Below, in pieces: positions 28,892-56,879 of a stretch of DNA of 64,000 nt; the first letter of the stretch is position 1, and every line of letters begins with the position of its first letter. The notes under the pieces were generated by a model that made no database searches, was not told the origin of the DNA, and worked only from the letters and a program-made list of their open reading frames with translations. This stretch comes from Gemmobacter sp. (GTDB taxonomy: Bacteria > Pseudomonadota > Alphaproteobacteria > Rhodobacterales > Rhodobacteraceae), in contig JBBAUB010000014.1 in assembly GCA_040398445.1 (NCBI GenBank), forward strand, positions 1,884-65,883, read 5' to 3'. Made by a program: the position numbers and the translations under genes.

Positions 28892-28912
28892 GGGGGCCTC
28901 CTTGGGGTGACA

Positions 28913-28932
28913 GGGGGGCGCAACCGCCCCCC
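28913..28932 (-). other. Intercistronic 8-bp GC hairpin GGGGGGCG-CAAC-CGCCCCCC
   Basis: Lies between the CE4 gene stop and the small CxxC gene. It resembles the hairpin module of the intergenic repeat family. Confidence 0.5.
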
Positions 28933-28940
28933 GTGCCGGA

Positions 28941-29843: not shown

Positions 29844-29877
29844 CAGTCTTTCCTCCTGTTGAGAAGTTGTCTTGGTT

Positions 29878-31236: not shown

Positions 31237-31240
31237 GGTC

Positions 31241-32341: not shown

Positions 32342-32367
32342 TGAAAAGTCCCCGATTTTCGTTTGGT

Positions 32368-32394
32368 GCGGTCGGGACGAATTGCCCCGACCGC
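32368..32394 (-). other. Perfect 9-bp hairpin GCGGTCGGG-N9-CCCGACCGC downstream of the SBP gene
   Basis: Read directly from the sequence. No U-tract, so an RNA-stabilising or attenuating element is more likely than a terminator. Confidence 0.5.
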
Positions 32395-32410
32395 AAGCTT
32401 CAAAGATCGA

Positions 32411-33631: not shown

Positions 33632-33688
33632 ATGTAGTACCTCCTGTTACGTCTGTTTTTGTCGTGTCTTCTTCTTTGTCCCGCCGGA

Positions 33689-36023: not shown

Positions 36024-36026
36024 GGC

Positions 36027-36899: not shown

Positions 36900-37978
36900 A
36901 TCGTTGCCTCGCGGCCGAAAACGATGGCCTGTTCCGGGTTCCAGGTCAGAAGGTAATCTTGCTTCGGTTCGTAAATCTCGGGCGCGCCAAGGCTCAGGTG
37001 GTGCTCCATCTCGACCAGATGGCCTTGGCCGGCGTCGAAGAAGTTCATGATCGACGACCCGAGGTATTCCGACGCGATAAAGGTTGCCTTCAACGCGGGC
37101 CCATCCGATGCCTTGGCCGAAAGCGGAAGCACCTTTACCCGGTCATAACGCACTGCGTAGACATCGCGCTCGGCACGGGTCGCCGACGGGGCGCTGACTG
37201 CACCGAAGCTTCCGGTGAAGTTCCCCTTCGACAACGTGCCGTCGAACAGGTTGTAGCGGTTCAGGAAATGCGCCACGTCCGGCGATGCGGGGCTGTCATA
37301 CACCTCGCCCGGCGTTCCGGTCTGGATGATCGTGCCGCGGTCCAGCACGACAACACGGTCGCCCATCGCCAACGCCTCGGTCTCGCTTCCGGTCACATGC
37401 AGGAAGGTCACGCCAAGCCGCTCGCGGATCGCCCGCAACTCGCTGCGCATGCGCGAGCGCAGGTTTGCATCAAGCGCTCCGAGCGGTTCGTCCAGCAACA
37501 CGAGCTTCGGGCGCATCGCAAGGGTGCGCGCCAAGGCGACGCGCTGGCGCTGGCCGCCCGAAATCTGGTCGACGCCGCGCCCCTCCATGCCCGACAGGCC
37601 TACCAGATCGATCATCTCGGCAGCGCGCCGCTCGACCTCGGAAGCTGCCATCGCGGGTTTGCCGTGGGTCAAACCAAAGCCGACATTCTGCATCACGGTC
37701 AGATGCGGGAACAATGCGAAGTTCTGGAAGACGAACCCGATTCCGCGTTCGTGCGCCTGCACGTTGGTGATATCGCGCCCCTCGAAATAGATGCGCCCCG
37801 CTTCGGGTGCCTCGAATCCCGCGATCACGCGTAAAAGCGTTGTCTTGCCCGAACCCGATGGCCCGAGGAACGACAGGTATTCGTTCGCTCCAACCTCGAG
37901 CGACGCATCGTTCAGTGCGACCAGATCGCCGTAGCGCTTGGTCACGCCTTCCAGTCTGAAGACCGACGTGTCCACCAT
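36896..37978 (-). CDS. PotA-type ABC transporter ATP-binding protein (first ATPase of the operon)
   Basis: [35 protein letters not shown] prefer ATG 37978 (MVDTSVFRLEG) to ATG 38050, which lacks an RBS. Confidence 0.8.
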   Translation of the reverse strand: MVDTSVFRLEGVTKRYGDLVALNDASLEVGANEYLSFLGPSGSGKTTLLRVIAGFEAPEAGRIYFEGRDITNVQAHERGIGFVFQNFALFPHLTVMQNVGFGLTHGKPAMAASEVERRAAEMIDLVGLSGMEGRGVDQISGGQRQRVALARTLAMRPKLVLLDEPLGALDANLRSRMRSELRAIRERLGVTFLHVTGSETEALAMGDRVVVLDRGTIIQTGTPGEVYDSPASPDVAHFLNRYNLFDGTLSKGNFTGSFGAVSAPSATRAERDVYAVRYDRVKVLPLSAKASDGPALKATFIASEYLGSSIMNFFDAGQGHLVEMEHHLSLGAPEIYEPKQDYLLTWNPEQAIVFGREATI

Positions 37979-38120: not shown

Positions 38121-38237
38121 ATTAAATTACGAATTACCGCTTTTTTGGGCAAGTTATTCGACAATTGGTCCAGTTTTCGCACAGGCTGCGAACCCGCTTC
38201 GTCACGCTTACATGGATATTGCGCACCGAATACGTTT

Positions 38238-39221
38238 TTATTGCGGACTAAGGTACGGCGCAAAAGAACCAGTTTCGTCGATCACCGCGACGATCTTCAT
38301 CCGCGCCAGATACCGCCGCGCCGTGATCGACAGGTGGTAGCGCAGATATTCGCACGCTGAATCAATGGGATGGTGTGTGATCAGGTCCAGCAGGGTCTGG
38401 TACTGCTCGATCGTATCCTCGTCACGCGGCAGACCCAGCAAGATCAGCGCCCGGTCGACCGACGACAGCAGCAACCTGTTGGACCGGATCATTTCGACAA
38501 GCGCCGCGTTTGGTGCCTGCGCAATGCAAAGTTCAAGCAGCGCATCGCCAAGATATTGGGGCGTGATGCCGGGATCGGTGCCGATCCTGTCAAGCAAAGC
38601 TTCGACCTCGGCATAACGGATATGCTGCGCGGCAAGACGCAGGGCAGCCGGTTCCATGATTCCACGCAACTCGAACTTTTCGCTTACCGTGCGGGCGGTG
38701 AGTGGCCCCGCGATCCAGTGCGAGCTGGGGCTTTTGCGCACCAAACCCCGCTCTTGCAGCCGCGCCAGCACATCGCGCACCACCGTGCGGCTGACGCCCA
38801 GATGGTCGGCCAATTCGGTCTCGACGATGCGGAATTCTCCGAAGATCTGGCACGAAGCCACCTCTTCCTCGACCTTGTCGTACACATGCCGCCACGTGCC
38901 GCGCGTCTGCAGGGCCTGATCTACGGCGTGGGGAATCTCAAGCTCCAACTCGCGGATGTCGCGCCGGATCGGGATGACGTCGCCGCCCCCCTTCCCGACC
39001 AGATAGCCCCGCCCGTCGAAACGGTTGATCAACCCTTCGTCCAGCAATTGCCGCAGGGCCGTTTGCACCGGGACGCGGCTTGTCTGCATCACAGCGGCGA
39101 TCGGCCCTTCGAGCAGCACGAACCCGCGCGGCAACACGCCCGACAGGATATTTTCGCGCAACACCCGCCCGATCAACTCGTAGCGCGGTTCCTGCGCCAA
39201 GGGATTGACCGACCGGATCAT
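38238..39221 (-). CDS. GntR/FadR-type regulator with two tandem winged-helix domains plus a C-terminal FCD domain
   Basis: wHTH-1 LPRGFVLLEGPIAAVMQTSRVPVQTALRQLLDEGLINRFDGRGYLV. wHTH-2 IVETELADHLGVSRTVVRDVLARLQERGLVRKSPSSHW. FCD-like EKFELRGIMEPAALRLAA... follows. Confidence 0.75.
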   Translation of the reverse strand: MIRSVNPLAQEPRYELIGRVLRENILSGVLPRGFVLLEGPIAAVMQTSRVPVQTALRQLLDEGLINRFDGRGYLVGKGGGDVIPIRRDIRELELEIPHAVDQALQTRGTWRHVYDKVEEEVASCQIFGEFRIVETELADHLGVSRTVVRDVLARLQERGLVRKSPSSHWIAGPLTARTVSEKFELRGIMEPAALRLAAQHIRYAEVEALLDRIGTDPGITPQYLGDALLELCIAQAPNAALVEMIRSNRLLLSSVDRALILLGLPRDEDTIEQYQTLLDLITHHPIDSACEYLRYHLSITARRYLARMKIVAVIDETGSFAPYLSPQ

Positions 39222-40450
39222 GCAGCAACCCCTGCATTCACGCGGCGCACGAAACGATCCCAGGCACGGGCGGCGTAATTGTATTCGTCCATGACGGTGT
39301 TCCAGATCACGATGCGTCGCGCCCGGTCGATGTAAGGCCCCCCTGCCCGCCGTTCGCCCGTCTTGACCGCCACTTCCCCATCCGGCCCTGCAAGATCACG
39401 CGACGCGGCGGCCCCTTCGTACCAATAGGCCCATTCCTCGGGTGCCAGCCATTCACGCGCCCGCTGCGGATTCGAGATGTAATATCCCTGCCGCGCCATC
39501 ACCGCGCCGGCATAGCCCGAAAGCCACCAGTTCAGGTATTCATAGGCCATGTCGAGTTCCGCACCGCGCAAGTGGCGCGACAGGCTCGCGCCGCCGTGCC
39601 ACGCCCGATACCCTTCGGAAGGTGCCGATTCCACGAAATGCGGCCGCGCCTTGCGCAGCTTGCCATAGACCGGCGACCACATGCTCTGGATCGCCACTGC
39701 GCCGCGTTCGGCCAGATCGGCGGCTTCGACCCCGTCACGCCACGTGGCGCAAAAATAGCCCTCGGTCCGCCGCTCTTCCAGCAGCGCCATCAGCGCGTTG
39801 ATCTCTTCGATGGTCATGTTGCCGATATCGGCAAACTCGATCTCGCCCGTGGCTTCTGCGGCAAGGGCCGCGTCGAAAAACCCGATGGCGGGTTCGTCGA
39901 CCAAGGCGATCCGCCCCTTGGCCCGGCGGTCAAGCAACCAGCCCCAGCTTGGCCGCACGTCGGGCCCTGCCCCAAAGACCCGCGCGTCATAGCCGAAACT
40001 GTCCATGTTGTGGACGGTCGGCAGCATGCTGATATGGCGCGATTGTTTTGGCCCCAGAAAACCGCCGGGCTGCACGTAAAGCTTTTTCGCCGGAGCGTCG
40101 CCACGCCCGCGCCCGGCGTATTTGCTGACCCCGCCAAGCTTCACGAGGTCCGAGATATTGTCCCATTCCGGCACGCGCCCGATGTCGATGGGCTGCAATG
40201 CCCCCCAAAACCACACGATATCGAGGTTGTGGAAACACTGTTCGTAAATGTCATAGCTTTCGGGGGCCATCGCAGCCTGGCGTTGGCAGGTCAAAAAATC
40301 CATCTTCTCGAAAGCGATGTCGAACCCCAGATCAGCCCGCGCTCTGTCGCGCACCGGATCGAGAAGCGTGATCGACGTGCCAAGCACCCGCAACTTGCGC
40401 CGCGATACGATCAGGGGGGTCGCAAGTCCGGATTTCGCGTCGTCTTTCAT
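39218..40450 (-). CDS. Signal-peptide-less (predicted cytoplasmic) paralogue of the PotD/F-like solute-binding protein
   Basis: Its C-terminus APEEWAYWYEG...IVIWNTVMDEYNYAARAWDRFV parallels APEKYAFWYEG...VAYWHQWPDEYDLLISKWDEFL of the SBP at 32411-33631. The N-terminus MKDDAKSGLATPLIVSRRKLRVLGTS aligns to the mature SBP start and lacks an h-region and AxA site. ATGA overlap with the GntR gene. Confidence 0.65.
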   Translation of the reverse strand: MKDDAKSGLATPLIVSRRKLRVLGTSITLLDPVRDRARADLGFDIAFEKMDFLTCQRQAAMAPESYDIYEQCFHNLDIVWFWGALQPIDIGRVPEWDNISDLVKLGGVSKYAGRGRGDAPAKKLYVQPGGFLGPKQSRHISMLPTVHNMDSFGYDARVFGAGPDVRPSWGWLLDRRAKGRIALVDEPAIGFFDAALAAEATGEIEFADIGNMTIEEINALMALLEERRTEGYFCATWRDGVEAADLAERGAVAIQSMWSPVYGKLRKARPHFVESAPSEGYRAWHGGASLSRHLRGAELDMAYEYLNWWLSGYAGAVMARQGYYISNPQRAREWLAPEEWAYWYEGAAASRDLAGPDGEVAVKTGERRAGGPYIDRARRIVIWNTVMDEYNYAARAWDRFVRRVNAGVAA

Positions 40451-40469: not shown

Positions 40470-40499
40470 GGGCGGGGCAGCTGTCGCTGCCCCCGCCCC
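40470..40499 (-). other. GC-rich 12-13-bp hairpin separating the carboxylase operon from the SBP-like/GntR genes
   Basis: GGGCGGGGCAGC-TGTC-GCTGCCCCCGCCC with one bulge. There is no U-tract on the minus strand. Confidence 0.45.
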
Positions 40500-40515: not shown

Positions 40516-41487
40516 TCAGACCAGTGCGGCAGCGACGGCGTCAAGCGTCGCCTTGCGGTCGTGCCGCGCTTGAAGCGCCTGTTCCATCGTCACCTTGACG
40601 AAGCGCGTCGGCGTGTGGGGCTGCAACTGCCCGATCAGGTCCATATCGGCTGACACGACGGTGCCCACCATGAAATAGCCCCCGCCCGACACGGCATCAC
40701 GGTGCAGCACGATGGGTTCGGTACCGCCGGGCACCTGAACCGACCCGTAGGGATAGCAGGCGTCCACGATGTTCGACGGGTCAGACCCCGCGCCAAAGGG
40801 CTGCTCGCGGTCGACGAATTCAAGCGGATGGCCCGCCTTGAACCGGTATCCGATGCGGTCCGCTTCGGGCGCGACCTTCCACGTATCTTCAAAAAAGGTC
40901 TTTCCCGCGCCTTCGGTAATGCGGTGCCAGTACAGGCCCGGCAGCATCCGCAGTTCTGCCGGCATGCCCGGCTTGCGCCGCAAAGCGTCGGGCAGTCTGC
41001 GCCCTTCGGTCGCCCCCTTGCCAGCGCCCAGGGGCAGAACATCTCCTGCCGCCAACTTGCGCCCGTGAAACCCGCCCAGCGCGCCCAGCGTATAGGTCGA
41101 CCGCGAGCCAAGCACGACAGGCACGTCGATCCCGCCCGCGATGGCGATATAGGCCCGCGCTCCGGTTTTCAGGAAGCCGAAGCTCAGGACTTGCCCCTTT
41201 TTCACCCGAAATGCGGTCCATCCGGCTTGCTCTATGCCATCTACGCGGGGCGGCATGTCGGCCCCCGTCACGGCAACCGTGGCATCGGCGGTAAACTCTA
41301 GCTCCGGCCCCAGAAACACCGCTTCCAGCGCGGCATCGCCCGCCGCATTGCCGACAAGCAGGTTCGCCGCCGTCAGCGACAGCGTGTCCATCGCGCCAGA
41401 AACCGGAATTCCGATATGGTAATATCCGGGGCGGCCAAGGTCTTGCACCGTGGTCGAAAGGCCCGGCTTGATGACGTTAATGGCCAT
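40516..41487 (-). CDS. KipA / PxpC / allophanate-hydrolase-subunit-2 family (carboxyltransferase-domain subunit 2)
   Basis: MAINVIKPGLSTTVQDLGRPGYYHIGIPVSGAMD is the hallmark N-terminus of this family. It overlaps the upstream gene by 11 nt. Confidence 0.8.
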   Translation of the reverse strand: MAINVIKPGLSTTVQDLGRPGYYHIGIPVSGAMDTLSLTAANLLVGNAAGDAALEAVFLGPELEFTADATVAVTGADMPPRVDGIEQAGWTAFRVKKGQVLSFGFLKTGARAYIAIAGGIDVPVVLGSRSTYTLGALGGFHGRKLAAGDVLPLGAGKGATEGRRLPDALRRKPGMPAELRMLPGLYWHRITEGAGKTFFEDTWKVAPEADRIGYRFKAGHPLEFVDREQPFGAGSDPSNIVDACYPYGSVQVPGGTEPIVLHRDAVSGGGYFMVGTVVSADMDLIGQLQPHTPTRFVKVTMEQALQARHDRKATLDAVAAALV

Positions 41488-42352
41488 TGAGAGCCTCCAT
41501 GATACGGGCATTGGTCCCGTCGATATCCTTCTGGAATTCCGCCAGCGAAAAACTCACCGGCGCGATGCGCGGCATCCAGCGGCCCGCGTCCACCTCGGCA
41601 ACCGTATGGTCATATTCCGCGCGGTCGATGGGCTTCCATTTCACGATATCGCCGGGGCTGAACAGGCACATGAAATCGCGCAGGTAAGGCACCGTCTGGT
41701 TCGGGTCATAGATCGGCATCGGGGTGATGCCGAACATCTGGTAGCCCCCCGCCCCGCGCACCGAATAGATGCAGGCAAAACAGCCGCCATGCCCCACGGT
41801 CAGCCGCGGCGTATCGGTGCGCGGACGCAGATACTTCGGCGACTGGATCTGACGCGGGCGGTCGACCATCTGGTACAGGAACGGCAGACCCGCCACGAAC
41901 CCCACCATCGACACGAACCACGGCGCGCCGGAATGGGCCTTGACGAAGCCGTCCACCCCGTCAAGCCCGTTGATCCGCGCCGTGTATTCGATATCGGTCG
42001 AGGTCGGATCCTGATGCCTTTCGCGAAAGCGCATCAATGTCTCGTGCGTCCATGGATCGTTGTAGAGCACCGGCACTTCGATGATCCGCGTCTGCAACAC
42101 CGGCGCTGCCGATTGCGCGACGGTTTCGAGCTTTTTCAGCTCGGCCATCATCGCATCGGGCGAAATCACGTCAGGATCGAAGCGCACCTGAAACGACGCG
42201 TTGGCGGGGCAAATCTCGGTCACGCCCTTGATCTTGGCATCGCGCAGGGCGCTGGTGATCGACATGCCCTTGAAAAAGGCTTCGAGCGACATTTCCTCAT
42301 CACATTCGACAAAGATATGTTCGTCGCCGCCAAAGGAGTATCTGGTCTTCAT
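41477..42352 (-). CDS. KipI / PxpB / allophanate-hydrolase-subunit-1 family (carboxyltransferase-domain subunit 1), long form
   Basis: MKTRYSFGGDEHIFVECDEEMSLEA...TEICPANASFQVRFDP...VSMVGFVAGLPFL. 291 aa. ATGA overlap with the biotin carboxylase gene. Confidence 0.7.
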   Translation of the reverse strand: MKTRYSFGGDEHIFVECDEEMSLEAFFKGMSITSALRDAKIKGVTEICPANASFQVRFDPDVISPDAMMAELKKLETVAQSAAPVLQTRIIEVPVLYNDPWTHETLMRFRERHQDPTSTDIEYTARINGLDGVDGFVKAHSGAPWFVSMVGFVAGLPFLYQMVDRPRQIQSPKYLRPRTDTPRLTVGHGGCFACIYSVRGAGGYQMFGITPMPIYDPNQTVPYLRDFMCLFSPGDIVKWKPIDRAEYDHTVAEVDAGRWMPRIAPVSFSLAEFQKDIDGTNARIMEALNGH

Positions 42353-43725
42353 TCCGGGGTCTCCTCAAGCCGGTGTGCATTCTGCTCGAGCCAAGGCTCC
42401 AGCCAGCGGGTGTGGAAATCGGCACGCGCGACATCGGGGTCGCGGGCCAGCAGCATGTGCAGCGGGCGGGTGGTCGGCAGGCCTTCGACCGCCAGTTCGT
42501 CAAGCGCCCGCCGCATGCGGGCAATCGCCGAAGGACGGTCTTCATCCCACACGATCAGCTTGCCCAGAAGCGAGTCGTAGAAGGGCGGCACGGTGTAGCC
42601 CTGATACAGCATCGTATCGAAGCGCACGCCCGCGCCCCCCGGCACCCGCAGCGCCGAAATCGTACCGGGGGCGGGCTGAAAGCCCTTGGACGGGTCTTCG
42701 GCGCAAATCCGCACTTCGATGGCATGGCCCGTCAGGCGGATGTCGTCTTGCCGGTAGCGGAGCGGTTCGCCCCCTGCGATGCGGATCATCTCGCGCACCA
42801 GATCCATCCCCGTGACCATTTCCGTCACCGGATGTTCGACCTGAATGCGCGTGTTCATCTCGATGAAGTAGAACGCGCCCGATGCATCGTCATACAGGTA
42901 TTCCAGCGTTCCCGCGCCGCGATAGCCCACCGCTTCGGCCAAGGCGACCGCCGAGGCGCAGAGTTTCTCGCGCATCGCCTGCGGCAAGCTGGCCGAGGGC
43001 GCTTCTTCCCACACCTTCTGCCGCCGCCGTTGCAGCGAACATTCGCGTTCAAAGCAATGCACCGCCCGCGTGCCGTCACCCAGCACCTGCACCTCGATAT
43101 GGCGGGCGCGTTCGATGACCTTTTCCATATACAGGCCACCATCGCCAAAGGCCGCTTTCGCCTCGGCGCTGGCCTGCGGCATCAGGCGGTCGAATTCTTC
43201 CATGTCATGGGCGATGCGGATACCGCGCCCGCCCCCGCCCGCCGCCGCCTTGATCATCACCGGAAAACCGATGGACAGCGCCAAGGCACGGGCCTGTTCG
43301 GGGTCGTCGATGCGCCCGTCTGACCCGGGCACCACCGGCACGCCCGCCGCCTTGGCGGCGATACGGGCGGCGACCTTGTCGCCCATCACGCGGATGCTAT
43401 CGCCCTTTGGGCCGACCCAGACCATCCCGGCCGCTTCCACCGCATCGGCGAAATTGGCGTTTTCGGCCAGAAAGCCATAGCCCGGATGCACCGCATCCGC
43501 CCCCGTCAGGCGCGCGGCTTCAAGGATCGCGTCGATCTTCAGATAGGATTTCGACGCCGCTGGCGGGCCGATGGGCACCGCCTCGTCCGCCAGTTTCACC
43601 GCCAGACTGTCGGCATCGGCAAGGCTGTGAACCTGCACCGTGGCAATGCCAAGCTCTTTGGCGGCGCGGATGATCCGCACCGCGATCTCGCCCCGGTTGG
43701 CGACGAGAAGTTTCTTTATCGCCAT
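42349..43725 (-). CDS. Biotin carboxylase (AccC-like, ATP-grasp)
   Basis: MAIKKLLVANRGEIAVRIIRAAKELGI...HPGYGFLAEN...IEMNTRIQVEHPVTE. Confidence 0.9.
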   Translation of the reverse strand: MAIKKLLVANRGEIAVRIIRAAKELGIATVQVHSLADADSLAVKLADEAVPIGPPAASKSYLKIDAILEAARLTGADAVHPGYGFLAENANFADAVEAAGMVWVGPKGDSIRVMGDKVAARIAAKAAGVPVVPGSDGRIDDPEQARALALSIGFPVMIKAAAGGGGRGIRIAHDMEEFDRLMPQASAEAKAAFGDGGLYMEKVIERARHIEVQVLGDGTRAVHCFERECSLQRRRQKVWEEAPSASLPQAMREKLCASAVALAEAVGYRGAGTLEYLYDDASGAFYFIEMNTRIQVEHPVTEMVTGMDLVREMIRIAGGEPLRYRQDDIRLTGHAIEVRICAEDPSKGFQPAPGTISALRVPGGAGVRFDTMLYQGYTVPPFYDSLLGKLIVWDEDRPSAIARMRRALDELAVEGLPTTRPLHMLLARDPDVARADFHTRWLEPWLEQNAHRLEETPE

Positions 43726-43728
43726 CCC

Positions 43729-43965
43729 TCAGCCCAACTCGACCAGCGGCTGACCGGCCATCACCGGCTCTTCGTCATCGGCCGGAAAGGCCGTGATCAC
43801 GCCCGCCTGATCGGCGGCGACTTCGTTGAACGACTTCATCACCTCGATCAACCCGATCACGTCGCCCACCGCCACGCTGTCGCCCACCTCCTTGTAAACC
43901 GGTTTGTCGGGCGAGGGGCGGCGGTAGAACGTGCCGGGCAGCGGGGAAAGAATTTGCTTGGCCAT
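43729..43965 (-). CDS. Minimal (78 aa) biotin carboxyl carrier protein / biotinyl domain
   Basis: GDVIGLIEVMKSFNEV is a biotinyl-lysine motif in the variant form VMKS instead of the common AMKM. There is no N-terminal extension. Confidence 0.75.
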   Translation of the reverse strand: MAKQILSPLPGTFYRRPSPDKPVYKEVGDSVAVGDVIGLIEVMKSFNEVAADQAGVITAFPADDEEPVMAGQPLVELG

Positions 43966-43984
43966 TGTCTTGTCCTTTTCGGTT

Positions 43985-44704
43985 TCAGGCCGCCGATTTC
44001 ACCGCAGAGCGCACCGCTTGGGCGACCTGAACGGCATTCGGCGTGTCGGAGTGAACGCAAATCGCATCGGCGCGGACGGCAACATCGACACCGCCGACAG
44101 ACCGCACCACGCCCTCGCGCATCGCCCGCAGGCAGGCGGCGGCGGCGGCGGCGGGATCGGTGGCCGCATGTTCGCGAGTGATGATAAGACCGCCCTGATC
44201 GTTGTAATCAAGATCGGCATAGAATTCCGACACGAAGGCATGCCCCCGCGCGGTATAGACGCTTTCGTGCAGCGTGCCCGCCATGCCGTAAAGCGGCACG
44301 CGGAAGATATCGGCCACATCGGCCACGGCATGCGCCACATCCTCCATCCGCGCGGCCATGCCGTATAGCGAACCGTGCGGCTTGATGTGGTTCAATTCTA
44401 CCCCCTCGGCCTGAAGGAATCCCTTCAACGCGCCGATCTGGTAGATCATGCAGTTGACCAGCTCCTCGCGCCCGATCTTCATCTCGCGCCGCCCGAACCC
44501 CTGAAGGTCGGGCAATGACGGATGTGCCCCCACCTTGACGCCGCATTGCTTGGCAAGCTGCACCGTCCGGCGCATGTGGTTGAAATCCGACGCGTGAAAG
44601 CCGCAGGCCACGTTCGCTACGTCGATCAGGGGCATCAGCCCGTCATCGTCACCGATGCGGTAAAGGCCGAAGCCTTCGCCCATATCGCAGTTGATGATGG
44701 TCAT
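43985..44704 (-). CDS. LamB/YcsF family (PxpA, 5-oxoprolinase subunit A-like)
   Basis: MTIINCDMGEGFG...ANVACGFHASD...GAHPSLPDLQGFGRR. ATGA overlap with the upstream hydantoinase A gene. Confidence 0.85.
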   Translation of the reverse strand: MTIINCDMGEGFGLYRIGDDDGLMPLIDVANVACGFHASDFNHMRRTVQLAKQCGVKVGAHPSLPDLQGFGRREMKIGREELVNCMIYQIGALKGFLQAEGVELNHIKPHGSLYGMAARMEDVAHAVADVADIFRVPLYGMAGTLHESVYTARGHAFVSEFYADLDYNDQGGLIITREHAATDPAAAAAACLRAMREGVVRSVGGVDVAVRADAICVHSDTPNAVQVAQAVRSAVKSAA

Positions 44705-46788
44705 GCCGCATCCCCCGTATAGTCGAGCAGATAGACGCCCGTTTCCGTCAGTTCCGCCGTCCAGCCCGGTTCCACCACCAGCGTGGTGGTGACTTCCTCG
44801 ATCACGGCGGGGCCGTCGATGCGGTCACCTGCCCCCAGCTTTTCGCCGGTATAGACCGGCGTATCCTGCACGGTGCCATCGGCGCCGAAAATCATCGCCC
44901 GCGTTCCGGCCAGCGCCTTGTCGGCCCCCTGCCCCTTGGCAATCGTCATCCGGCGCGGTTTGTCGACCCGCCCCGAGATCGCGCTTTCCACGTTCACCAC
45001 CTCGACCACGCTACCCGGTTCCGAATAGGTGTAAAGCTCTTCGTGCCGCGCATGGAATGCCGCCTTGAGCCGATCAAGCGCGGCCTCATCCAGCGTGAAG
45101 GGGTCTACATCGACTGTACATTCATGCACCTGCCCGACATAGCGCATATCCAGACTGCGCAGGATGGAAATCCGGTCTTCGGTGAAACCGTCTTTCTTGA
45201 GGTCGGCCACGCCCCGCGCTTCCAGCCCGTTGAACAGACCGTCCAGCTTGGCCGCTGCCGCCGCCCCTTCCAGACGCACCGGAGCGGGTGCCATGTAGTT
45301 GTATTTCACGTCCGAAATGATCTGCCCGTAGGCGCAAAGCCCTGACGCCAGCTTTGACACCAGCACGCGGGTGATGCCCATTTCCCGCGCAAGTGCGGTG
45401 ATATGCGCGCCCGTGGCCCCGCCCGCACAGTTCAGCACGAAATCGCGCGGGTCGTAGCCGCGTTCGACCGACACGCGGCGGATGGCGTTGACCATGTTGT
45501 TGTTAACGATGGTGAACATGCCATAGGCGGCCTGTTCGATGCTAAGCGAAAGCGGCTTGGCCAGATGCGCGTCGATGGCCTTTTGCGCCTTGTCCACCGC
45601 CAAGGGCAGGCGCCCGCCCACCAGACCATCGGGGTTCAGATAGCCCAGCACCAGATTGGCATCCGTGGTCGTCGGCTTTTCGCCGCCTTGGTCGTAACAG
45701 GCTGGCCCCGGTTCGGACCCTGCCGATTGCGGACCCATCTGCAAAAGACCCATCGAGTCGATCCAACCGATCGACCCGCCGCCTGCGCCCAGCGTTTCGA
45801 CCTGAATCATCGGAATCCCGATGCGGTAGCGCAGAAAGTCGATGTTTTTCGACACATTCGCCCGCCCGTCGCGCGTCAGCGTGATGTCGAAGCTGGTGCC
45901 GCCCATATCGACCGTAATGATGTTCTTCAGGCCCCAAGGCTCTCCGATATACAGCGCCGCCTGCGGGGCCGAGGCGGGGCCCGAGTTGATGGCATAGACC
46001 GACTGGTCCGACACCACCGACCCCAGCGCCAACCCGCCGTTGGACTGGAAGTAGCGCACGGGGTTCTTGGCACCCAGGCTGCGGAAATAGCCGTCCACCG
46101 CTTCGACATAGCGCGACAGGATGGGTGCCAGATAGGCGTTCACGATGGCGGTCGAGGTGCGGGTGTATTCGCGCACCTGCGGATAAAGCAGGCTGCCCAC
46201 GGTCAGCCGCACGCCGGGCATCATTTCGCGCACGATATCGGCGGCGCGCAATTCATGGTCGGGGTGCAGCACGGACCACACGAAGCTGATGGCGACCGAA
46301 TCCACGCCTTCGCGCAGGAAATGGCGGCAGGCGTCGCGCACGTCATCTTCGTTCAGCGGCGTATGCACCGCGCCGGTCGAGACCACCCGTTCGCGCACGC
46401 CACGCCGCAGGTAGCGCGGCACCAGCATTCGGGCGGGCGGATATTCGGGGTCGTAGCGATAGCCGTCTTCCTTATGGCCCAGACGGATTTCGATGCTGTC
46501 TTCATGCCCCGCCGTGGCGATCAGCCCCGTGCGTGCGCCCTTGTGCTGGATCAGCGCGTTTAGGCCGACGGTCGTGCCGTTGATGCACAGATCGGCGTTC
46601 GAGACGATCTCGGTCGCTGTGATGCCGGTTTCTTCCTCGATCAGGGACAGCCCGTTGCGGATGGCTTGGGTCGGGTCTTGCGGGGTGGACAGAGCCTTGA
46701 AGATCCGCACCTCGCCGGTGCGGTCGGCAAGGATGAAATCGGTGAAGGTGCCGCCGGCATCGATGCCAAGACGATAGGTGTTCTGCAT
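44701..46788 (-). CDS. Hydantoinase A / oxoprolinase family alpha subunit (pair 2, lactamase/OplA-like arrangement)
   Basis: MQNTYRLGIDAGGTFTDFILADRTGE... 695 aa. The gene order is B then A, unlike pairs 1 and 3. Confidence 0.85.
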   Translation of the reverse strand: MQNTYRLGIDAGGTFTDFILADRTGEVRIFKALSTPQDPTQAIRNGLSLIEEETGITATEIVSNADLCINGTTVGLNALIQHKGARTGLIATAGHEDSIEIRLGHKEDGYRYDPEYPPARMLVPRYLRRGVRERVVSTGAVHTPLNEDDVRDACRHFLREGVDSVAISFVWSVLHPDHELRAADIVREMMPGVRLTVGSLLYPQVREYTRTSTAIVNAYLAPILSRYVEAVDGYFRSLGAKNPVRYFQSNGGLALGSVVSDQSVYAINSGPASAPQAALYIGEPWGLKNIITVDMGGTSFDITLTRDGRANVSKNIDFLRYRIGIPMIQVETLGAGGGSIGWIDSMGLLQMGPQSAGSEPGPACYDQGGEKPTTTDANLVLGYLNPDGLVGGRLPLAVDKAQKAIDAHLAKPLSLSIEQAAYGMFTIVNNNMVNAIRRVSVERGYDPRDFVLNCAGGATGAHITALAREMGITRVLVSKLASGLCAYGQIISDVKYNYMAPAPVRLEGAAAAAKLDGLFNGLEARGVADLKKDGFTEDRISILRSLDMRYVGQVHECTVDVDPFTLDEAALDRLKAAFHARHEELYTYSEPGSVVEVVNVESAISGRVDKPRRMTIAKGQGADKALAGTRAMIFGADGTVQDTPVYTGEKLGAGDRIDGPAVIEEVTTTLVVEPGWTAELTETGVYLLDYTGDAA

Positions 46789-46806
46789 GGTGTTCTTCCT
46801 TGTCCG

Positions 46807-48561
46807 TCAGGCAGCGGTTGCGCGCAGGGCGGCGGTGGCTTTGGTATCGACCGCCAGCGTGTCGCGGTCGGTGATCACCACGCCATAATCGAGCCGCGCC
46901 CCCTCGAGGCTGACCAAACCGTTGCGAACATCTTCGACCACTTTCTGCACGTCGCGTTCGAAGGCGTTGCCGTAACCCCCGCCACCGGGGTTCTTGTTCG
47001 CGGCCCGCTCTCCGGGCTGGATGGTTTCGATCACGTTGTCGGTGATGATCTGGGTCGCGCCATTGCGGGTCAGTTCAAGCCGCCCGACCTTTTTCGACAC
47101 CATGGCCGATTTCGCCCCCGCAGCCCCCATCGCCGGAATGCGCCGCCCTTCGCCAAAGGTGATCAGCGTCATCGGCGTATCCAGCGGCTCGACCTCCCAG
47201 CAGGTGCCAGACCCGCCACGGTTCTTGCCCGCCCCGCCACTATCCTCCATCAGCGAATAGCGGTGGATGATGATCGGATAGCTGTGTTCCAGCATCTCGA
47301 TATCGCCACTGGTCAGGGCGCCGAAACAGCACTCTGGCCCCACTGCGTGCCAACCATCGGCCTGCGACGTCGCCCCCGCCCCCGAGATGATCGAGGCCAG
47401 AACCATCGTCACATATTCCTCGTCGTGCCGCTTGTCCCAGCCTGCGATGTTGCAGCCGTTGGCATGGCCCCAACTGGCCGAAACCTTGTGCGGTGCCGCC
47501 TGTTCGAACGCCAGACGCACGGCATCGGTCAGGGTTTCCATCGGCGTCGTGGTGCAGTTCATGTGCGGCGCAGGCGACTTGGCGTTGCACAGCGTTCCCT
47601 TCGGCCCCATGTCGGTGCTGACGCAGCGATACAGCCCCTCGTTATAGGGTGGCGGCAATTGTGCGAACATCATCAGACCAAGGTAGACGCCCGAATGGCT
47701 GTTTCCTTCGTAGCTGTTGATGAAATACGGGATTTGCGGCGGCGACTGGATGGCGATGTGGCAGCCATCGCCCTTGATCGTCACAGTCGCCGTGATCTCG
47801 AAATCGCCAAATCCGTGGCCCGCATCCTCAAGAATGGCGGTGCCGGTATAGGTGCCATCCGGCACCTCGGCGATCAGGCTGCGCATGTGGTGCTCGGCCA
47901 TGTCGAGCAGTTCGGCGATGCACTCTTGCACCATCGCCTTGCCGTATTTGTCCATCAGCCGCTTGAGGTTGCGCGCGCCCACCTGACAGGCCCCGATCAA
48001 GGCGTTGAAGTCGCCCTCTTGGTCGCGGCGCGCGCGCATGTTGGACAGGATCATGTTCATCACGTCATGGCGCGGTTTGCCCTGATCCCAGATCTTGATG
48101 GGCGGAATACGCAGGCCTTCGGCATAGATCTCGGTCGCGTTGGGATTGTAACCCGCAGGCACCGGCCCGCCGATATCGGTCAGGTGGCCCTTGCACACCG
48201 TCCAGAACACCAGCTCGCCCTGATAGAACACCGGCATATACATGCAGGTGTCGATGATATGCGACCCGCCATAGACCGGGTCGTTGTGCAGCATCAGGTC
48301 GCCGTCATGGATGTCGCCCTCGAAATATTTGGCGACCGATTTCATCGCGGGAATAAGCGATCCAAGGTGGATCGGGATATCCTGCCCTTGCAAGATCATC
48401 TCGGGTGCATGGTTGAACAGTGCGGTCGAATAATCATGCGCAAGGTTGAACACCGACGACCGCGCGGTCTGCTCCAGCGCCAATGTCATCTCGCGCTGCG
48501 TCGTTTCAAGCACGCCGCGTACCACCGAAAGCGTGATCGGGTCGATATTCCGTTTTGCCAT
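46807..48561 (-). CDS. Hydantoinase B / oxoprolinase family beta subunit (pair 2)
   Basis: MAKRNIDPITLSVVRGVLETTQREMTLALEQTARSSVFNLAHDYSTALFN... GGGAG RBS. ORF 46807..48666 was trimmed to ATG 48561. Confidence 0.85.
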   Translation of the reverse strand: MAKRNIDPITLSVVRGVLETTQREMTLALEQTARSSVFNLAHDYSTALFNHAPEMILQGQDIPIHLGSLIPAMKSVAKYFEGDIHDGDLMLHNDPVYGGSHIIDTCMYMPVFYQGELVFWTVCKGHLTDIGGPVPAGYNPNATEIYAEGLRIPPIKIWDQGKPRHDVMNMILSNMRARRDQEGDFNALIGACQVGARNLKRLMDKYGKAMVQECIAELLDMAEHHMRSLIAEVPDGTYTGTAILEDAGHGFGDFEITATVTIKGDGCHIAIQSPPQIPYFINSYEGNSHSGVYLGLMMFAQLPPPYNEGLYRCVSTDMGPKGTLCNAKSPAPHMNCTTTPMETLTDAVRLAFEQAAPHKVSASWGHANGCNIAGWDKRHDEEYVTMVLASIISGAGATSQADGWHAVGPECCFGALTSGDIEMLEHSYPIIIHRYSLMEDSGGAGKNRGGSGTCWEVEPLDTPMTLITFGEGRRIPAMGAAGAKSAMVSKKVGRLELTRNGATQIITDNVIETIQPGERAANKNPGGGGYGNAFERDVQKVVEDVRNGLVSLEGARLDYGVVITDRDTLAVDTKATAALRATAA

Positions 48562-48700
48562 GCCGGTCTCCCTGACTTGAACAGGCAAACGAATCCCGAT
48601 GCCGTCCTCGAACGACAGCCTGCGCTGTAACCGGCACGCCTGTCTTGTCACAGGGCGCACCGGCATTTGTCATCCAGTGCACTTGGCTGCTGACAGCGCG

Positions 48701-48719
48701 TTTTCCGGCGCGGGAAACG
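48701..48719. promoter_or_regulatory. 7-5-7 inverted repeat GTTTTCC-GGCGC-GGGAAAC
   Basis: Lies in the 340-bp divergent region between hyuB (pair 2) and the AraC gene. One mismatch from perfect symmetry. Confidence 0.4.
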
Positions 48720-48782
48720 GGCGCAAATTCCGCAGAGCCCGTGGCTGGCCCTACTGCCCGCCTGCCAGAGGGAGGAACCGCG

Positions 48783-48801
48783 TTTTCCACGTCGGAAAAC
48801 G
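48783..48801. promoter_or_regulatory. Perfect 7-5-7 inverted repeat GTTTTCC-ACGTC-GGAAAAC
   Basis: Same architecture as 48701-48719, with centres 82 bp apart. Confidence 0.45.
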
Positions 48802-48805
48802 GCAG

Positions 48806-48825
48806 GAAAAATGCGTCATTTTCCG
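48806..48825. promoter_or_regulatory. Everted repeat GGAAAA-N8-TTTTCC using the same half-site
   Basis: Read directly from the sequence. It follows immediately after the 48783-48801 site. Confidence 0.35.
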
Positions 48826-48901
48826 TTCGCCACGAACGGCGGAATTGACTTCGCCCGAACAAGTACGATCATACGACGTTCACGACAGTGGAGCCTTTCC
48901 G

Positions 48902-49861
48902 GTGACACCTGCGACGCACAGTACAGACCACGTTCCCGCATCGGCCCGCGCCGGTCACTGGAATGCTGTGATCGCGCAGGCCTATTTCCCGCTCGACCTG
49001 ACGTTCCGCCAGCCTGCCCGCTTCGAAGGGCGGCTGGAACACAGCACCCTTGGCGAGGTGTCGCTGTCGCGCCTGCAAACCGAGCCTGTGCAATACGAAC
49101 GCCACCGCCGCCACATCTCGCGCACAACCGAGGAACAGTACCTTATCACCATCCCGCGCAAATCGCCGGTCGAGTTCAGCCAATCGGGACGCGAGGTGCG
49201 CTGCGATCCGGGCGGTTTCATCCTCGAACGTGGCGACGAACCCTATCGCTTTTCCTATGGCGCGGCGAACGACCTGTGCGTCATCAAGGTCGCAAAACCC
49301 GTCCTGTCGGAAAAGCTGCGCAACCCCGACCGCTTTTGTGCGCTGGTGTTCGACGGACGCGGGGGGATGGGGGCATTGTTCACCACCATGGCGCAACAGG
49401 TACAGCGCCAGACGGCTGCCGAACCGGCGACCGATCCGCTTGCCGGAACCGTGCTGGGGCGGCATCTGGTCGAGCTTTTGGCGCTTGCACTCGACCAAGG
49501 CAGCGACGTCGAAACGGGCGCGGCCTCGTCGGTGCGCGAGGGCCACCGCCGCCGCGCGCAGGCGGTGATCCTGTCGCAACTTTCGAACCCCGACCTGTCG
49601 CCCGAACTTGTGGCCGACCGCGTCGGCATCTCGAAACGCTACTTGCACGAATTGTTCGCCGAGGTGAACTCGACCGTCTCGCAATCCATCCGCGAACAGC
49701 GGCTGCGGGCGGCGCGTGACCTGTTGCAAATGCCCGGCCCCGGCCCGATGTCTGACATCGCCTATCGCTTCGGCTTTTCCGATCAGGCGCAGTTCTCGCG
49801 GCTGTTCAAGGCGATGTTCGGCCAGACCCCAAGCAGCTACCGCGCCAGCCAAACGCCCTAA
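48902..49861 (+). CDS. AraC-family transcriptional regulator
   Basis: C-terminal double HTH ...ISKRYLHELFAEVNSTVSQSIREQRLRAARDLL...MSDIAYRFGFSDQAQFSRLFKAMFGQTPSSYR. No ATG lies in the N-terminal part of ORF 48599..49861, so I chose in-frame GTG 48902 (TGGAG 9 nt upstream). The start is uncertain. Confidence 0.75.
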   Translation: MTPATHSTDHVPASARAGHWNAVIAQAYFPLDLTFRQPARFEGRLEHSTLGEVSLSRLQTEPVQYERHRRHISRTTEEQYLITIPRKSPVEFSQSGREVRCDPGGFILERGDEPYRFSYGAANDLCVIKVAKPVLSEKLRNPDRFCALVFDGRGGMGALFTTMAQQVQRQTAAEPATDPLAGTVLGRHLVELLALALDQGSDVETGAASSVREGHRRRAQAVILSQLSNPDLSPELVADRVGISKRYLHELFAEVNSTVSQSIREQRLRAARDLLQMPGPGPMSDIAYRFGFSDQAQFSRLFKAMFGQTPSSYRASQTP

Positions 49862-52811: not shown

Positions 52812-54587
52812 TCAGGCAGCCCGCATCCGTGCCCGCAAGCTTTGGGTCGCTGTTTCGTCCAAACCCCAGCCATAACCGTTCTTTACCGGCTGGAAGACAA
52901 CGCCATAAACCTCGCGTGCATGGTCGGGCGTGATGTACCCGTCCAAAAGGTCGTCCAACACCTTGGCCGGATCGCGGTTCAGCGGATGGCCGTAGCCGCC
53001 GCCACAGGGCGAGAGGTAGGTCACCACGTCCCCCAGTTCGGCCCGCATGCCGGAAAACTTGGCATCCACATCGCGCGGCGGCTGCCCGCTGGTGGCGTTT
53101 TCAATCCGCACGATGGCGGTCGCCCCCTCGTGCCCGCCAAAGATGCCCCACGGCACATCCTCGTTGCGGTCGCTTTCATGGGTCATGAACCCCGGCGTCA
53201 GGAAGCGTTGCGATTTCACCACGCCCATGCCGCCCCTGTATTCGCCCGCACCGGGGAACACATCGTCGCGGATTTCGTAGCGGTCGCAGATCATCGGCAG
53301 ATGCATGCCAAGGTCTTCCAGCGGATTGTTGCGGGTGTTGCGCATCAATTCCTCGATGGTGTCCGGCCCGTCCGAACGGGGCCGCGCACCCATGGCGGCC
53401 TCGTTCACCTCGATCAGCACCCAGTAATCCCCCGTATCGCGCAGACCGGAATAGGATGCAAAGGACAGGCAGGCCGCGTTTCCGGCAGTGCATTTGTCGG
53501 GCAGCACGGGGGCGAGCGCCTTGATGATCAGATCGACCACGCGCTGAATCTGGTTGAACCGCGCCTCGCAGGCGGCGGGCGCGATGGGGTTGAAGATAGA
53601 CCCCAAGGGCGCCGTCACCTTGACGGGGCGGAACGACCCCTCGTTCTGCGGGATGTACTCCTGATGGGTATAGGTATCTAGCAACAGCGCACGAAAGGCG
53701 AAGTAGCAGGCCACCTTGGTCGACCCCTCGAACGGCACGTTGAACGCGGTGGGCACCTGCGGCGACGATCCTGTCAGGTCGACCTCGACATCGTCGCCGC
53801 GCACCCGCACCGTCACCTTGATCGGCAGGCGAACGCCCCGCGTGCGGCCATCGTCATCCATGAAGCCTTCGGCAAAGTAATCCCCGTCAGGTATCTTGGC
53901 GATCTCGCGCCGCAGCATGGTTTCGGAATAGTCCATCAACTGGCTGGCGGCCTGTTCGACCGTATCGCGGCCATAGGTATCCATCAGCTCGCAATACCGC
54001 TTCACCCCCAACTCGGCCGATGCGATCTGCGCTTCAAGATCGCGCATCACCAGCCCCGGCACCCGCGTGTTGCCGCTGATATAGCGCCACAGCGTATCGT
54101 TGCGCTTGCCCGCCTCGACCAGCTTCAACCCGTTCAGCAGCATCCCTTCGGCAAAGACATCCGGCACGTCGATGATCAACCCCGGCGTGGCCGCCCCGAT
54201 ATCGAGATGGTGCGCGGTATTGGCGGAAAAACCGACCAGTTCGCCACGGTAGAAGATCGGCATGACGATCCCGATGTCGGGCGAATGGCTGGCCCCGAAA
54301 TAGGGGTGGTTGTGAATCACCACATCGCCGTCATGCCAGTCGGTTTTGGGAATGCTCTTCTCGATCCCGCGCAGATAACCGGGGATCGACCCGATATGCA
54401 TCGGCGTGGAATCGCTTTCGCACAGCGTGTTATAATCAAGGTCGAACAGCCCCGCGCCAAGGTCCTGGCTTTCGCGGATGATCGACGAATAGGACATGCG
54501 ATACAGCACGTTGCCCATCTGTTCGGCAATGGCATGCAACGCGCCGCCAATGACCTGAAGCGTGATCGGATCGATGGTCTTGGTCAT
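52812..54587 (-). CDS. hyuB: Hydantoinase B / oxoprolinase family beta subunit (pair 3)
   Basis: MTKTIDPITLQVIGGALHAIAEQMGNVLYRMSYSSIIRESQDLGAGLFD... 57 of the 70 N-terminal residues I aligned by eye are identical to pair 1. Confidence 0.85.
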   Translation of the reverse strand: MTKTIDPITLQVIGGALHAIAEQMGNVLYRMSYSSIIRESQDLGAGLFDLDYNTLCESDSTPMHIGSIPGYLRGIEKSIPKTDWHDGDVVIHNHPYFGASHSPDIGIVMPIFYRGELVGFSANTAHHLDIGAATPGLIIDVPDVFAEGMLLNGLKLVEAGKRNDTLWRYISGNTRVPGLVMRDLEAQIASAELGVKRYCELMDTYGRDTVEQAASQLMDYSETMLRREIAKIPDGDYFAEGFMDDDGRTRGVRLPIKVTVRVRGDDVEVDLTGSSPQVPTAFNVPFEGSTKVACYFAFRALLLDTYTHQEYIPQNEGSFRPVKVTAPLGSIFNPIAPAACEARFNQIQRVVDLIIKALAPVLPDKCTAGNAACLSFASYSGLRDTGDYWVLIEVNEAAMGARPRSDGPDTIEELMRNTRNNPLEDLGMHLPMICDRYEIRDDVFPGAGEYRGGMGVVKSQRFLTPGFMTHESDRNEDVPWGIFGGHEGATAIVRIENATSGQPPRDVDAKFSGMRAELGDVVTYLSPCGGGYGHPLNRDPAKVLDDLLDGYITPDHAREVYGVVFQPVKNGYGWGLDETATQSLRARMRAA

Positions 54588-54590
54588 GGT

Positions 54591-56690: not shown

Positions 56691-56879
56691 TCCAGACCCC
56701 CGCTGATTGGCTTTGCCCAGACGATTGACGCACGGAATAGCGCAAGGACAAAGCGGATTTTGCATACCGCGCCATGGGGTCGAGGACGGTATCGCCAGCG
56801 CAGACTTGGCAAAAACATCAAGGAACGCAAGTGTTTAACCGACGGGATATATGACCAAAGCACAACCCGCCGCCGTGCC

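Follow-up and report, generated by a model that had tools for sequence, protein, structure and literature searches.

Why should a two-subunit lactamase and a five-protein biotin-dependent enzyme be encoded in one tight run of genes? The question is raised by a 64,000-nucleotide stretch of the genome of Gemmobacter sp., a freshwater Rhodobacter-type bacterium (GenBank assembly GCA_040398445.1, contig JBBAUB010000014.1, positions 1,884 to 65,883). In this stretch, hereafter called the window and numbered from its first letter, a HyuB-HyuA pair is followed by genes for a LamB-type hydrolase, a biotin carboxyl carrier protein (BCCP), a biotin carboxylase (BC) and KipI- and KipA-like carboxyltransferase (CT) proteins. 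The last five are referred to below as the module. The interpretation that we tentatively favor is that the seven genes constitute a catabolic operon for cyclic amides (lactams), with two parallel ATP- and bicarbonate-dependent ring-opening systems. It draws on the assignment of HyuB-HyuA as a probable caprolactamase orthologue, on the domain content of the module, and on the repeated association of both in other genomes.

Organization of the probable operon

The seven genes lie on the minus strand, opposite a divergent regulatory gene:

48561-46807, minus strand: hyuB, 584 amino acids (aa), CapB/OplB-type lactamase beta subunit with a Zn site (NF050157, 1105.6 bits)
46788-44701, minus strand: hyuA, 695 aa, CapA/OplA-type lactamase alpha subunit with an ATP site (NF050156, 1226.8 bits)
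44704-43985, minus strand: lamB, 239 aa, LamB/YcsF (PxpA-like) putative cyclic-amide hydrolase of the short A subtype (PF03746, 291 bits)
43965-43729, minus strand: BCCP gene, 78 aa (PF00364, 56.7 bits; NF005457, 119.3 bits against a cut-off of 87)
43725-42349, minus strand: BC gene, 458 aa, ATP-grasp enzyme with Biotin_carb_N/CPSase_L_D2/Biotin_carb_C domains (NF009471, 771.5 bits against a cut-off of 686)
42352-41477, minus strand: kipI-like gene, 291 aa, CT subdomains C and D (CT_C_D, PF02682)
41487-40516, minus strand: kipA-like gene, 323 aa, CT subdomains A and B (CT_A_B, PF02626; TIGR00724, 268.6 bits against a cut-off of 230)
48902-49861, plus strand: AraC-family regulator gene, 319 aa, GTG start, AraC_binding_2 and HTH_18 domains

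All minus-strand genes started with ATG and ran in frame to a single terminal stop, and their GC content at third codon positions (0.76 to 0.85) indicated that the seven are coding. The gene hyuB, with GGGAGA as its ribosome-binding site, was separated from hyuA by 18 nt, and hyuA and lamB overlapped in an ATGA. Gaps of 19 and 3 nt followed at the lamB/BCCP and BCCP/BC junctions. BC and kipI shared a further ATGA, and kipI and kipA overlapped by 11 nt, with GGAGG upstream of the kipA ATG. The GTG of the AraC gene at 48902 was preceded by GGAG, and the divergent region between it and hyuB measured 340 bp. Re-reading of the coordinates and junctions confirmed all positions given in an earlier note on this DNA, those of the seven genes, of their three overlaps and of the divergent AraC gene, and Pfam and NCBIfam profile searches bore out its domain assignments for all seven proteins.

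HyuB-HyuA as a caprolactamase orthologue

Assignment to CapA and CapB was based on the NCBIfam equivalogs NF050156 (alpha subunit) and NF050157 (beta subunit), each with a cut-off of 1000 bits, which both window proteins exceeded. HyuB matched CapB of Pseudomonas jessenii (PDB 6YRA_B) over its full length (911 bits), with the Asp-His-Asp-His zinc ligands aligned and identical. HyuA did so with CapA (6YRA_A; 828 bits), the ATP motifs DAGGTFTDF and DMGGT being identical; the residues of the caprolactamase ATP and zinc motifs were those listed in PMC8453981. Since the other two HyuAB pairs of the window remained under the cut-off of the caprolactamase models (540/222 and 552/248 bits), hyuB-hyuA (48561-44701) appears to be its sole caprolactamase orthologue. 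Judged from its sequence, then, the pair is orthologous to the caprolactamase/valerolactamase CapAB/OplBA of Pseudomonas.

Both additional pairs, neither of them a caprolactamase equivalog, have the A-then-B order. One (52812-56765, minus strand) lies with genes for a LysR regulator, an old yellow enzyme, a MaoC-like protein, a family-III CoA-transferase and an acyl-CoA dehydrogenase; an acyl-CoA dehydrogenase and CoA-transferase pair again adjoins hyuBA in locus L096. The other lies at 22084-26261 on the plus strand. The window is also unusually rich in genes for amide and cyclic-amide hydrolases (27640-31236, 6016-7416 and 61967-62698). They encode two enzymes with the amidase signature, a protein of the polysaccharide-deacetylase family that is weakly similar to the PuuE allantoinase and stands beside a CobW metallochaperone, and a creatininase-family protein.

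The five-protein biotin module

LamB passed the PxpA subfamily model NF003814 (259.7 bits, cut-off 226) and missed its best PxpA equivalog (235.9 against 392 bits); its relatives in PDB are UPF0271 proteins, including YbgL. KipI aligned along its length to residues 804 to 1088 of urea carboxylase with 117 bits, better than to the PxpB model TIGR00370 (69.3 bits, cut-off 145.55), and to residues 837 to 1108 of PDB 3VA7. KipA was about equally close to Escherichia coli YbgK/PxpC (5DUD) and to the CT domain of urea carboxylase, and reached 219.7 bits on the PxpC equivalog NF045499, with a cut-off of 500.

The BCCP contains the motif EVMKS, with Lys44 of 78 lying 34 residues before the C terminus (about 35 is the spacing looked for in a biotinylated carrier domain) and the MK core intact. 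The earlier note had called this VMKS motif atypical. EVMKS was invariant, however, in the 27 BCCP copies retrieved from modules of the A subtype, defined below (22 from loci with the gene order of the window plus five others), while the two B-type copies compared carried EVMKQ or EVMKT. It is a family trait, neither an oddity nor a defect.

With BC, CT subdomains A to D and BCCP, the module equals urea carboxylase in domain set, and it might work as a urea (or guanidine) carboxylase in split form, scavenging nitrogen from urea-like products and only loosely tied to the lactamase. The best alignment of KipI, to urea carboxylase, is in agreement with this, as is the name 'urea carboxylase' given to homologues by JGI. 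However, on the urea carboxylase model TIGR02712 (cut-off 1303.85) the pieces scored 515 (BC), 230 (KipA), 117 (KipI) and 20 bits (BCCP), and a fused Agrobacterium uca was only 27.6% identical to KipI. No allophanate hydrolase was found in the window; the amidase at 29878-31236, considered as a candidate, reached 192.5 bits on TIGR02713 (cut-off 511) and was rejected, being a PRK06102 amidase. Neither a guanidine nor any other riboswitch, nor any other Rfam RNA, was detected at 27-52 kb. Moreover, LamB is the invariant first gene in complete modules and is missing from urea carboxylase systems, and the neighboring genes are those of lactam and amine catabolism, not of urea. We consider this explanation quite improbable: the expression 'urea-carboxylase-like', used in the earlier note, holds for the domain content, but the module is not a urea carboxylase.

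Recurrent pairing of the module with hyuBA

Relatives of HyuA were sought in one genome per species; 532 were found, and neighborhoods were taken for the 80 best, whose identity was 79% or higher. Nearly all of them came from Rhodobacterales, the closest (96%) being that of Paragemmobacter straminiformis. A divergent AraC gene stood beside hyuB-hyuA in 75 of the 80 loci, and the remaining five were cut off before that position. The full gene order of the window was present in 22 species-level genomes (window-type loci), 16 of which span the whole 12-gene block. In about 55 loci a Liv-type ATP-binding cassette (ABC) transporter directly followed hyuA and there was no biotin module; one locus carried KipI/KipA about 9 kb away, and two were cut off early.

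For KipI, at least 7,716 matches were obtained at E ≤ 1e-10, the top 120 all being at least 76% identical. The sample used for co-occurrence, in which adjacency in gene order was compared, consisted of the 22 window-type loci plus seven independent neighborhood look-ups (77 to 81% identity) from Rhizobium alvei, Aestuariivirga and several metagenomic contigs. hyuB-hyuA adjoined the module in all seven look-ups, with an AraC gene in six and BioY in four. They added four further gene orders, which gives at least five in all.

The pairing followed the type of LamB. The A type is short (237 to 242 aa, 73 to 96% identical to LamB of the window) and stood beside hyuBA in every case of the sample. 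The B type is long (258 to 262 aa, 43 to 46% identical) and occurs in stand-alone modules and in Shinella, and the LamB of Thioclava is intermediate (64%). The joining of hyuBA and module that the earlier note had pointed out is recurrent, and far above chance, for the A subtype (22 loci and 7/7 look-ups, in five or more orders), but most other genomes keep the module as a separate, LysR-controlled unit.

The module was found alone with a divergent LysR gene in Ruegeria TM1040, Diaphorobacter, Azospirillum, Thioclava, Acidiphilium (with BioB) and Rhizobium johnstonii; in Ruegeria TM1040 it adjoined genes for γ-aminobutyric acid (GABA) transaminase and succinate-semialdehyde dehydrogenase. A divergent LysR gene was present in 13 of 14 other full module contexts inspected, the exception being L096; neither the window nor any of the 22 window-type loci has one, lamB following hyuA directly in these. 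The arrangement as a single operon is a fusion specific to this lineage, in which a known lactamase has been joined to a widespread, uncharacterized biotin enzyme.

Among plasmids, the module was found on 90 records and a CapA-like gene on 23, the two lying within 6 kb of each other on only seven, all Shinella-like. They were 27 kb apart on two Haladaptatus plasmids and 556 kb apart on one Sinorhizobium record, and stood on different replicons in three Shinella strains; eight Paracoccus records and one from Azoarcus had hyuA only. In the plasmid of Paracoccus seriniphilus (L095), an NCS1 'allantoin permease' gene follows AraC-hyuB-hyuA in place of the ABC transporter, so that the lactamase core has recruited at least three importer types across lineages. 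Plasmid pYJN5-2 of Paenarthrobacter sp. YJN-5 (L088) carries a duplicated block of PxpA, KipI and KipA with no adjacent BC or BCCP. Copies of IS21 flank this block, whose genes are interspersed with those for PdxS, a class-III aminotransferase, a glutamine-synthetase-like protein and an aldehyde dehydrogenase. The block represents a different catabolic context for the same CT pair.

These distributions bear on two further explanations. According to the first, the module would be a plain 5-oxoprolinase (PxpABC) variant for metabolite repair, next to hyuBA by accident. In its favor, NCBI labels the first gene as 5-oxoprolinase subunit PxpA, LamB passes the PxpA subfamily model, and genes for amide hydrolases, three HyuAB pairs among them, are crowded together in the window. 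We regard it as improbable nonetheless, because the equivalog cut-offs for PxpA, PxpB and PxpC were all missed and canonical PxpABC comes without a dedicated BC or BCCP. In addition, the module is often located on megaplasmids together with LysR/GntR regulators and importers, a catabolic rather than a housekeeping setting, and an incidental neighborhood would not recur in so many gene orders.

The second would make KipI and KipA regulators that sequester biotinylated BCCP, in the manner of MSMEG_0435-0436 acting on the mycobacterial acyl-CoA carboxylase; the latter pair binds BCCP-biotin and lowers carboxylase activity (PMC13012033). In the module, however, the pair is accompanied by a BC, a BCCP and a LamB of its own, the order of the five genes being fixed in different phyla (haloarchaea and Actinomycetota among them), and no acyl-CoA carboxyltransferase partner is present. 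The order LamB-BCCP-BC-KipI-KipA was the same in Alpha- and Betaproteobacteria, with lamB first in every complete copy seen. A purely regulatory role is very improbable, and like the urea/guanidine and plain 5-oxoprolinase explanations it is contradicted by the features tested.

Regulation and extent of the presumed transcription unit

The region between the AraC gene and hyuB contains one conserved candidate operator:

48642-48681, minus strand: tandem direct repeat TGCGC-N6-GACAA (two copies), candidate AraC operator, 80 nt upstream of the hyuB ATG

When 19 AraC-hyuB intergenic regions, from loci that have the biotin module and from loci that lack it, were aligned with MAFFT, the core positions of this repeat formed the main conserved block, and no second tandem repeat of this kind occurred within the 64-kb window. 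The best NCBIfam match of the AraC regulator was FeaR, with a score below the FeaR cut-off. Two 21-nt palindromes, CGTTTTCC-N5-GGAAAACG, at 48699-48719 and 48781-48801 (82 bp apart) in the same intergenic region, were also considered as an operator. They were rejected, as they lie in an insert of about 100 nt that is specific to the window and absent even from 96%-identical relatives; from the alignment, this stretch looks like a recent insertion.

Sigma-70 promoters and intrinsic terminators were searched for at 38-50.5 kb and compared with shuffled sequence. The stretch between hyuA and lamB contained no terminator-like site. Within the run of genes a single promoter-like match was noted, a weak one in lamB, and the scan as a whole gave totals at or below the shuffle expectation. 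According to the earlier note, a promoter or terminator separating hyuBA from the biotin module would count against its idea, and apart from this match at shuffle level none was found. We infer that hyuBA and the module are co-transcribed. The sole conserved operator lies upstream of hyuB, the junctions are tight, LysR is gone and an internal terminator is missing; the module therefore appears to have been fused behind hyuA and to be read from the AraC-dependent promoter.

Spacing was conserved to different degrees at the different junctions. BC and kipI overlapped by 4 nt in all but two of those window-type loci that extend to that junction, and kipI and kipA by 11 nt in all window-type loci that reach it. 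By contrast, the spacing between hyuA and lamB ranged from -4 to 102 nt. The hyuA/lamB ATGA overlap was accordingly rejected as a conserved coupling device, since only the window and 3 of the 22 related loci have it and the others show gaps of 11 to 102 nt.

Genes and elements downstream of kipA

The co-directional array does not end at kipA. After a 65-nt gap that contains a hairpin, it continues with a binding-protein-like gene and a GntR gene, and further on with a PotD-type transporter cluster that has a promoter-like block of its own:

40470-40499, minus strand: GC-rich stem-loop directly 3' of the kipA stop, without a T-run
39218-40450, minus strand: binding-protein-like gene, 410 aa, signal-less paralogue of a periplasmic binding protein
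38238-39221, minus strand: GntR/FCD regulator gene, 327 aa, 4-nt overlap with the 410-aa gene, duplicated N-terminal winged helix
38075-38114, minus strand: sigma-70-like promoter block TTGACAG-N17-TGTTATACGAAGTACAGTTT, upstream of the ABC ATPase gene
35172-37978, minus strand: ABC ATPase and two permeases of a PotD-type importer (ABC_tran, BPD_transp_1 twice)
27640-35172, minus strand: two short-chain dehydrogenases/reductases (SDRs), a twin-arginine translocation (TAT)-signal PotF-like binding protein, a second ATPase, an amidase, a polysaccharide-deacetylase-family protein and a CobW GTPase

The 71-nt intergenic segment holding the hairpin folds at -36.8 kcal/mol (z = -3.2). A perfect GC-rich hairpin of 10 to 13 bp was found at the same spot in nine of ten lineages (L001, L003, L004, L006, L007, L012, L019, L023 and L035); the structure is kept, the sequence is wholly different between lineages, and none has a T-run. 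The element may be an intercistronic stabilizer, a processing or stability point, or a partial terminator. It escaped the scan described above, as did the conserved promoter of the ABC genes, and both were found by comparing loci. The description of the locus as a seven-gene operon stands for the unit up to the conserved hairpin, but two more co-directional genes follow without a recognizable promoter.

The 410-aa protein gave no sequence match in Pfam, NCBIfam or PDB and was recognized solely as a binding-protein paralogue: over 388 aa it shares 27% identity with the TAT-signal, distantly PotF-like binding protein encoded at 32411-33631. Its gene, translationally coupled to gntR by the 4-nt overlap, is kept in the 19 window-type loci that reach that far, with a spacing of -4 or -1 to gntR; L096 also has a 409-aa gene followed by a GntR gene. 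The protein could be a cytoplasmic ligand sensor for the GntR regulator. The FCD domain of the latter is preceded by two successive GntR-type winged-helix stretches (residues 14-75 and about 110-165), and long homologues (333 to 339 aa) adjoin the module in Rhizobium, Shinella and Thioclava.

A gap of 259 nt separates gntR from the ABC transporter genes. The block TTGACAG-N17-TGTTATACGAAGTACAGTTT in this gap could be recognized, slightly varied, in each of the eight related loci that were compared with the window, and a second, semi-conserved element beginning with TAAAACGTATT lies at 38200-38237, directly 3' of the gntR stop. To judge by this conservation, the two likely represent a promoter plus a GntR operator. 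The ABC ATPase-permease trio also follows the module in plasmid pRL12 of R. johnstonii and in Shinella. As far as the pRL12 stretch reaches, two SDRs, a binding protein, a second ATPase and the deacetylase belong to the same run. The same downstream gene set stands behind the module in Shinella and Thioclava and partly in Acidiphilium, whose cluster has SDR, deacetylase, GTP-binding and binding-protein genes.

Proposed function

According to the parallel-systems interpretation, the first system, HyuB-HyuA, would open six- and seven-membered lactams to omega-amino acids. In the second, BC would put CO2 on the 78-aa BCCP, the KipI+KipA carboxyltransferase would transfer it to the nitrogen in the ring of a cyclic amide, in the way in which urea carboxylase carboxylates urea, and the LamB/PxpA hydrolase would cleave the activated ring, after which the N-carboxy product would lose CO2. 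The net reaction would be lactam + ATP + H2O to amino acid. Most likely the module would cover substrates that HyuBA handles badly, such as five-membered lactams. In the Paracoccaceae lineage, the module would have lost its usual LysR gene on being fused behind hyuA, both systems then being read from the AraC-controlled hyuB promoter. Both the N-carboxylation followed by LamB hydrolysis and the substrate range are what we infer from published precedents and domain content.

The precedents are as follows. CapAB and OplAB catalyze ATP-driven hydrolysis of caprolactam and valerolactam with a strict requirement for bicarbonate, and carboxyphosphate has been proposed as the activating species (PMC8453981, PMC11033972). 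This is the same chemistry as that of biotin carboxylase, and we count it for two parallel systems. OplAB of Pseudomonas putida is strongly active on delta-valerolactam and shows only trace activity on gamma-butyrolactam (PMC11033972), while the PxpABC paralogue PP_2920-2 is the butyrolactam hydrolase of P. putida and another PxpABC serves 5-oxoproline (10.1101/2021.12.09.472016). Stand-alone KipA/KipI homologues bind the biotin of a BCCP domain (PMC13012033). In combination with the domain content, these precedents make the module look like a counterpart of PxpABC that depends on biotin. The place of the Ruegeria TM1040 module beside GABA-catabolic genes counts for lactams as substrates, and the BioY or BioB genes within related module clusters count for a complete biotin enzyme.

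A bolder form of the proposal, which we hold to be rather unlikely, is that the module is a biotin-dependent lactamase of a new enzyme type, in which carboxybiotin N-carboxylates an inert lactam and LamB hydrolyzes the activated ring. If this were true, ordinary PxpABC might likewise borrow AccB/AccC of the cell; to our knowledge, PxpABC 5-oxoprolinases have no ATP-binding subunit of their own. In that case, the strict pairing of the A type with HyuBA would point to a single natural cyclic amide as the substrate of a route with two enzymes.

Several observations weigh against the parallel-systems interpretation. Literature searches yielded no biochemical or genetic data for the module in any organism. 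KipI and KipA fall under the PxpB and PxpC equivalog scores, and no piece reaches the urea carboxylase score. Neither an omega-aminotransferase nor a semialdehyde dehydrogenase gene adjoins the operon in the 64-kb window. The hairpin, the GntR gene and the PotD-type transporter cluster show that a portion of the system is governed by other signals. Finally, parallel systems predict that the A-type module should at times stand alone, which it never did in the sample, and this hints at a tighter dependence on HyuBA.

This last point is better accommodated by a sequential or cooperative pathway, in which module and HyuBA would act on the same molecule in turn. In a sequential version, the module would remove or open one amide of an imported compound and leave a lactam for HyuBA; in a cooperative one, it would supply activated CO2, so that HyuBA could work at cellular bicarbonate levels. 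The A-type module occurred with hyuBA in 29 of 29 cases, whereas hyuBA often occurs without the module. Three loci (L085, L098 and L099) show a two-stage layout, with LysR ahead of a transporter, SnoaL, the module and BioY, and AraC ahead of hyuBA, a cupin and an aminotransferase; Aestuariivirga has all these genes in one co-directional array. Also in favor of such a pathway, CapAB/OplAB require tens of mM bicarbonate in vitro (PMC8453981, PMC11033972), and the lactam-catabolism genes of Aspergillus nidulans are lamA plus lamB, under AmdR. On the other hand, CapAB/OplAB are active alone in vitro and in Pseudomonas, with no adjacent module, and no mechanism is known for carboxybiotin transfer to a HyuAB enzyme. 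Furthermore, B-type modules stand in genomes without nearby hyuBA, and the neighboring genes point to no candidate substrate with two amides. We consider such a pathway possible but doubtful, and rate it only somewhat below the parallel systems.

Significance

The LamB-BCCP-BC-KipI-KipA module is very common, with the KipI matches and plasmid records counted above and hosts such as Rhizobium, Azospirillum, Ruegeria, haloarchaea and, from the literature, P. aeruginosa, and it is misleadingly annotated as acetyl-CoA carboxylase, allophanate hydrolase or 5-oxoprolinase. Full-text literature searches gave no paper characterizing the module or its pairing with a caprolactamase. They also yielded no assigned pathway for the gene set, in agreement with the earlier note, and P. 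aeruginosa PA0492/3-PA0496 are there called of unknown function. The recurrent pairing of the module, irrespective of gene order, with a lactamase whose biochemistry is defined gives a first concrete clue to what it may do, namely open cyclic amides, and it suggests a route that uses ATP, bicarbonate and biotin to open unreactive lactams. It also connects with two puzzles, the bicarbonate need of CapAB/OplAB and the coupling of ATP to ring opening in PxpABC. Lactamases for 2-pyrrolidone, valerolactam and caprolactam, and sensors of these compounds, are wanted for nylon recycling and lactam bioproduction.

Comparison with known systems

In A. nidulans, the two lactam-catabolism genes lamA and lamB share the regulator AmdR. 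Its lamA is presumably oxoprolinase-like (HyuA/HyuB-type), and we know of no BC, BCCP or KipI/KipA genes reported at the fungal lamA-lamB locus.

PxpABC and its paralogue PP_2920-2, known to open five-membered lactams at the expense of ATP (10.1101/2021.12.09.472016), share with the module the LamB/PxpA hydrolase, KipI (PxpB-like) and KipA (PxpC-like). The module of the window differs from them in having its own BC and BCCP between lamB and kipI, as do all complete related modules seen, and a KipI of 291 aa with a urea-carboxylase-like C-terminal part. Urea carboxylase/urea amidolyase and guanidine carboxylase have the same domains and presumably the same N-carboxylation chemistry. In the window, however, the set is split into four polypeptides, is paired with LamB and not with allophanate hydrolase or carboxyguanidine deiminase, lacks a riboswitch, and is about 28% identical to a real uca.

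Two uncharacterized clusters also resemble the module, whose BCCP and BC type, defined by the NCBIfam models NF005457 and NF009471, is shared. In P. aeruginosa PA0492/PA0493-PA0496, we take PA0492 to be LamB and PA0495/6 to be KipI/KipA. The literature describes PA0493 as a biotin-requiring protein and PA0494 as an AccC-like subunit, both of unknown function. R. johnstonii pRL12 carries PxpA-BCCP-BC-KipI-KipA and then GntR, ABC, two SDR, binding-protein and deacetylase genes as in the window. Its LamB is of the long B type (43% identical), whereas that of the window is of the A type, and unlike the window both clusters have a divergent LysR gene and no adjacent hyuBA.

P. jessenii CapAB and P. 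putida OplBA, the latter with the AraC-type sensor OplR, for their part likewise have two subunits in the B-then-A order and a divergent AraC-family gene. The Pseudomonas pair is accompanied by genes for an aminotransferase and a dehydrogenase but by no biotin module, whereas the pair of the window is fused to five further genes.

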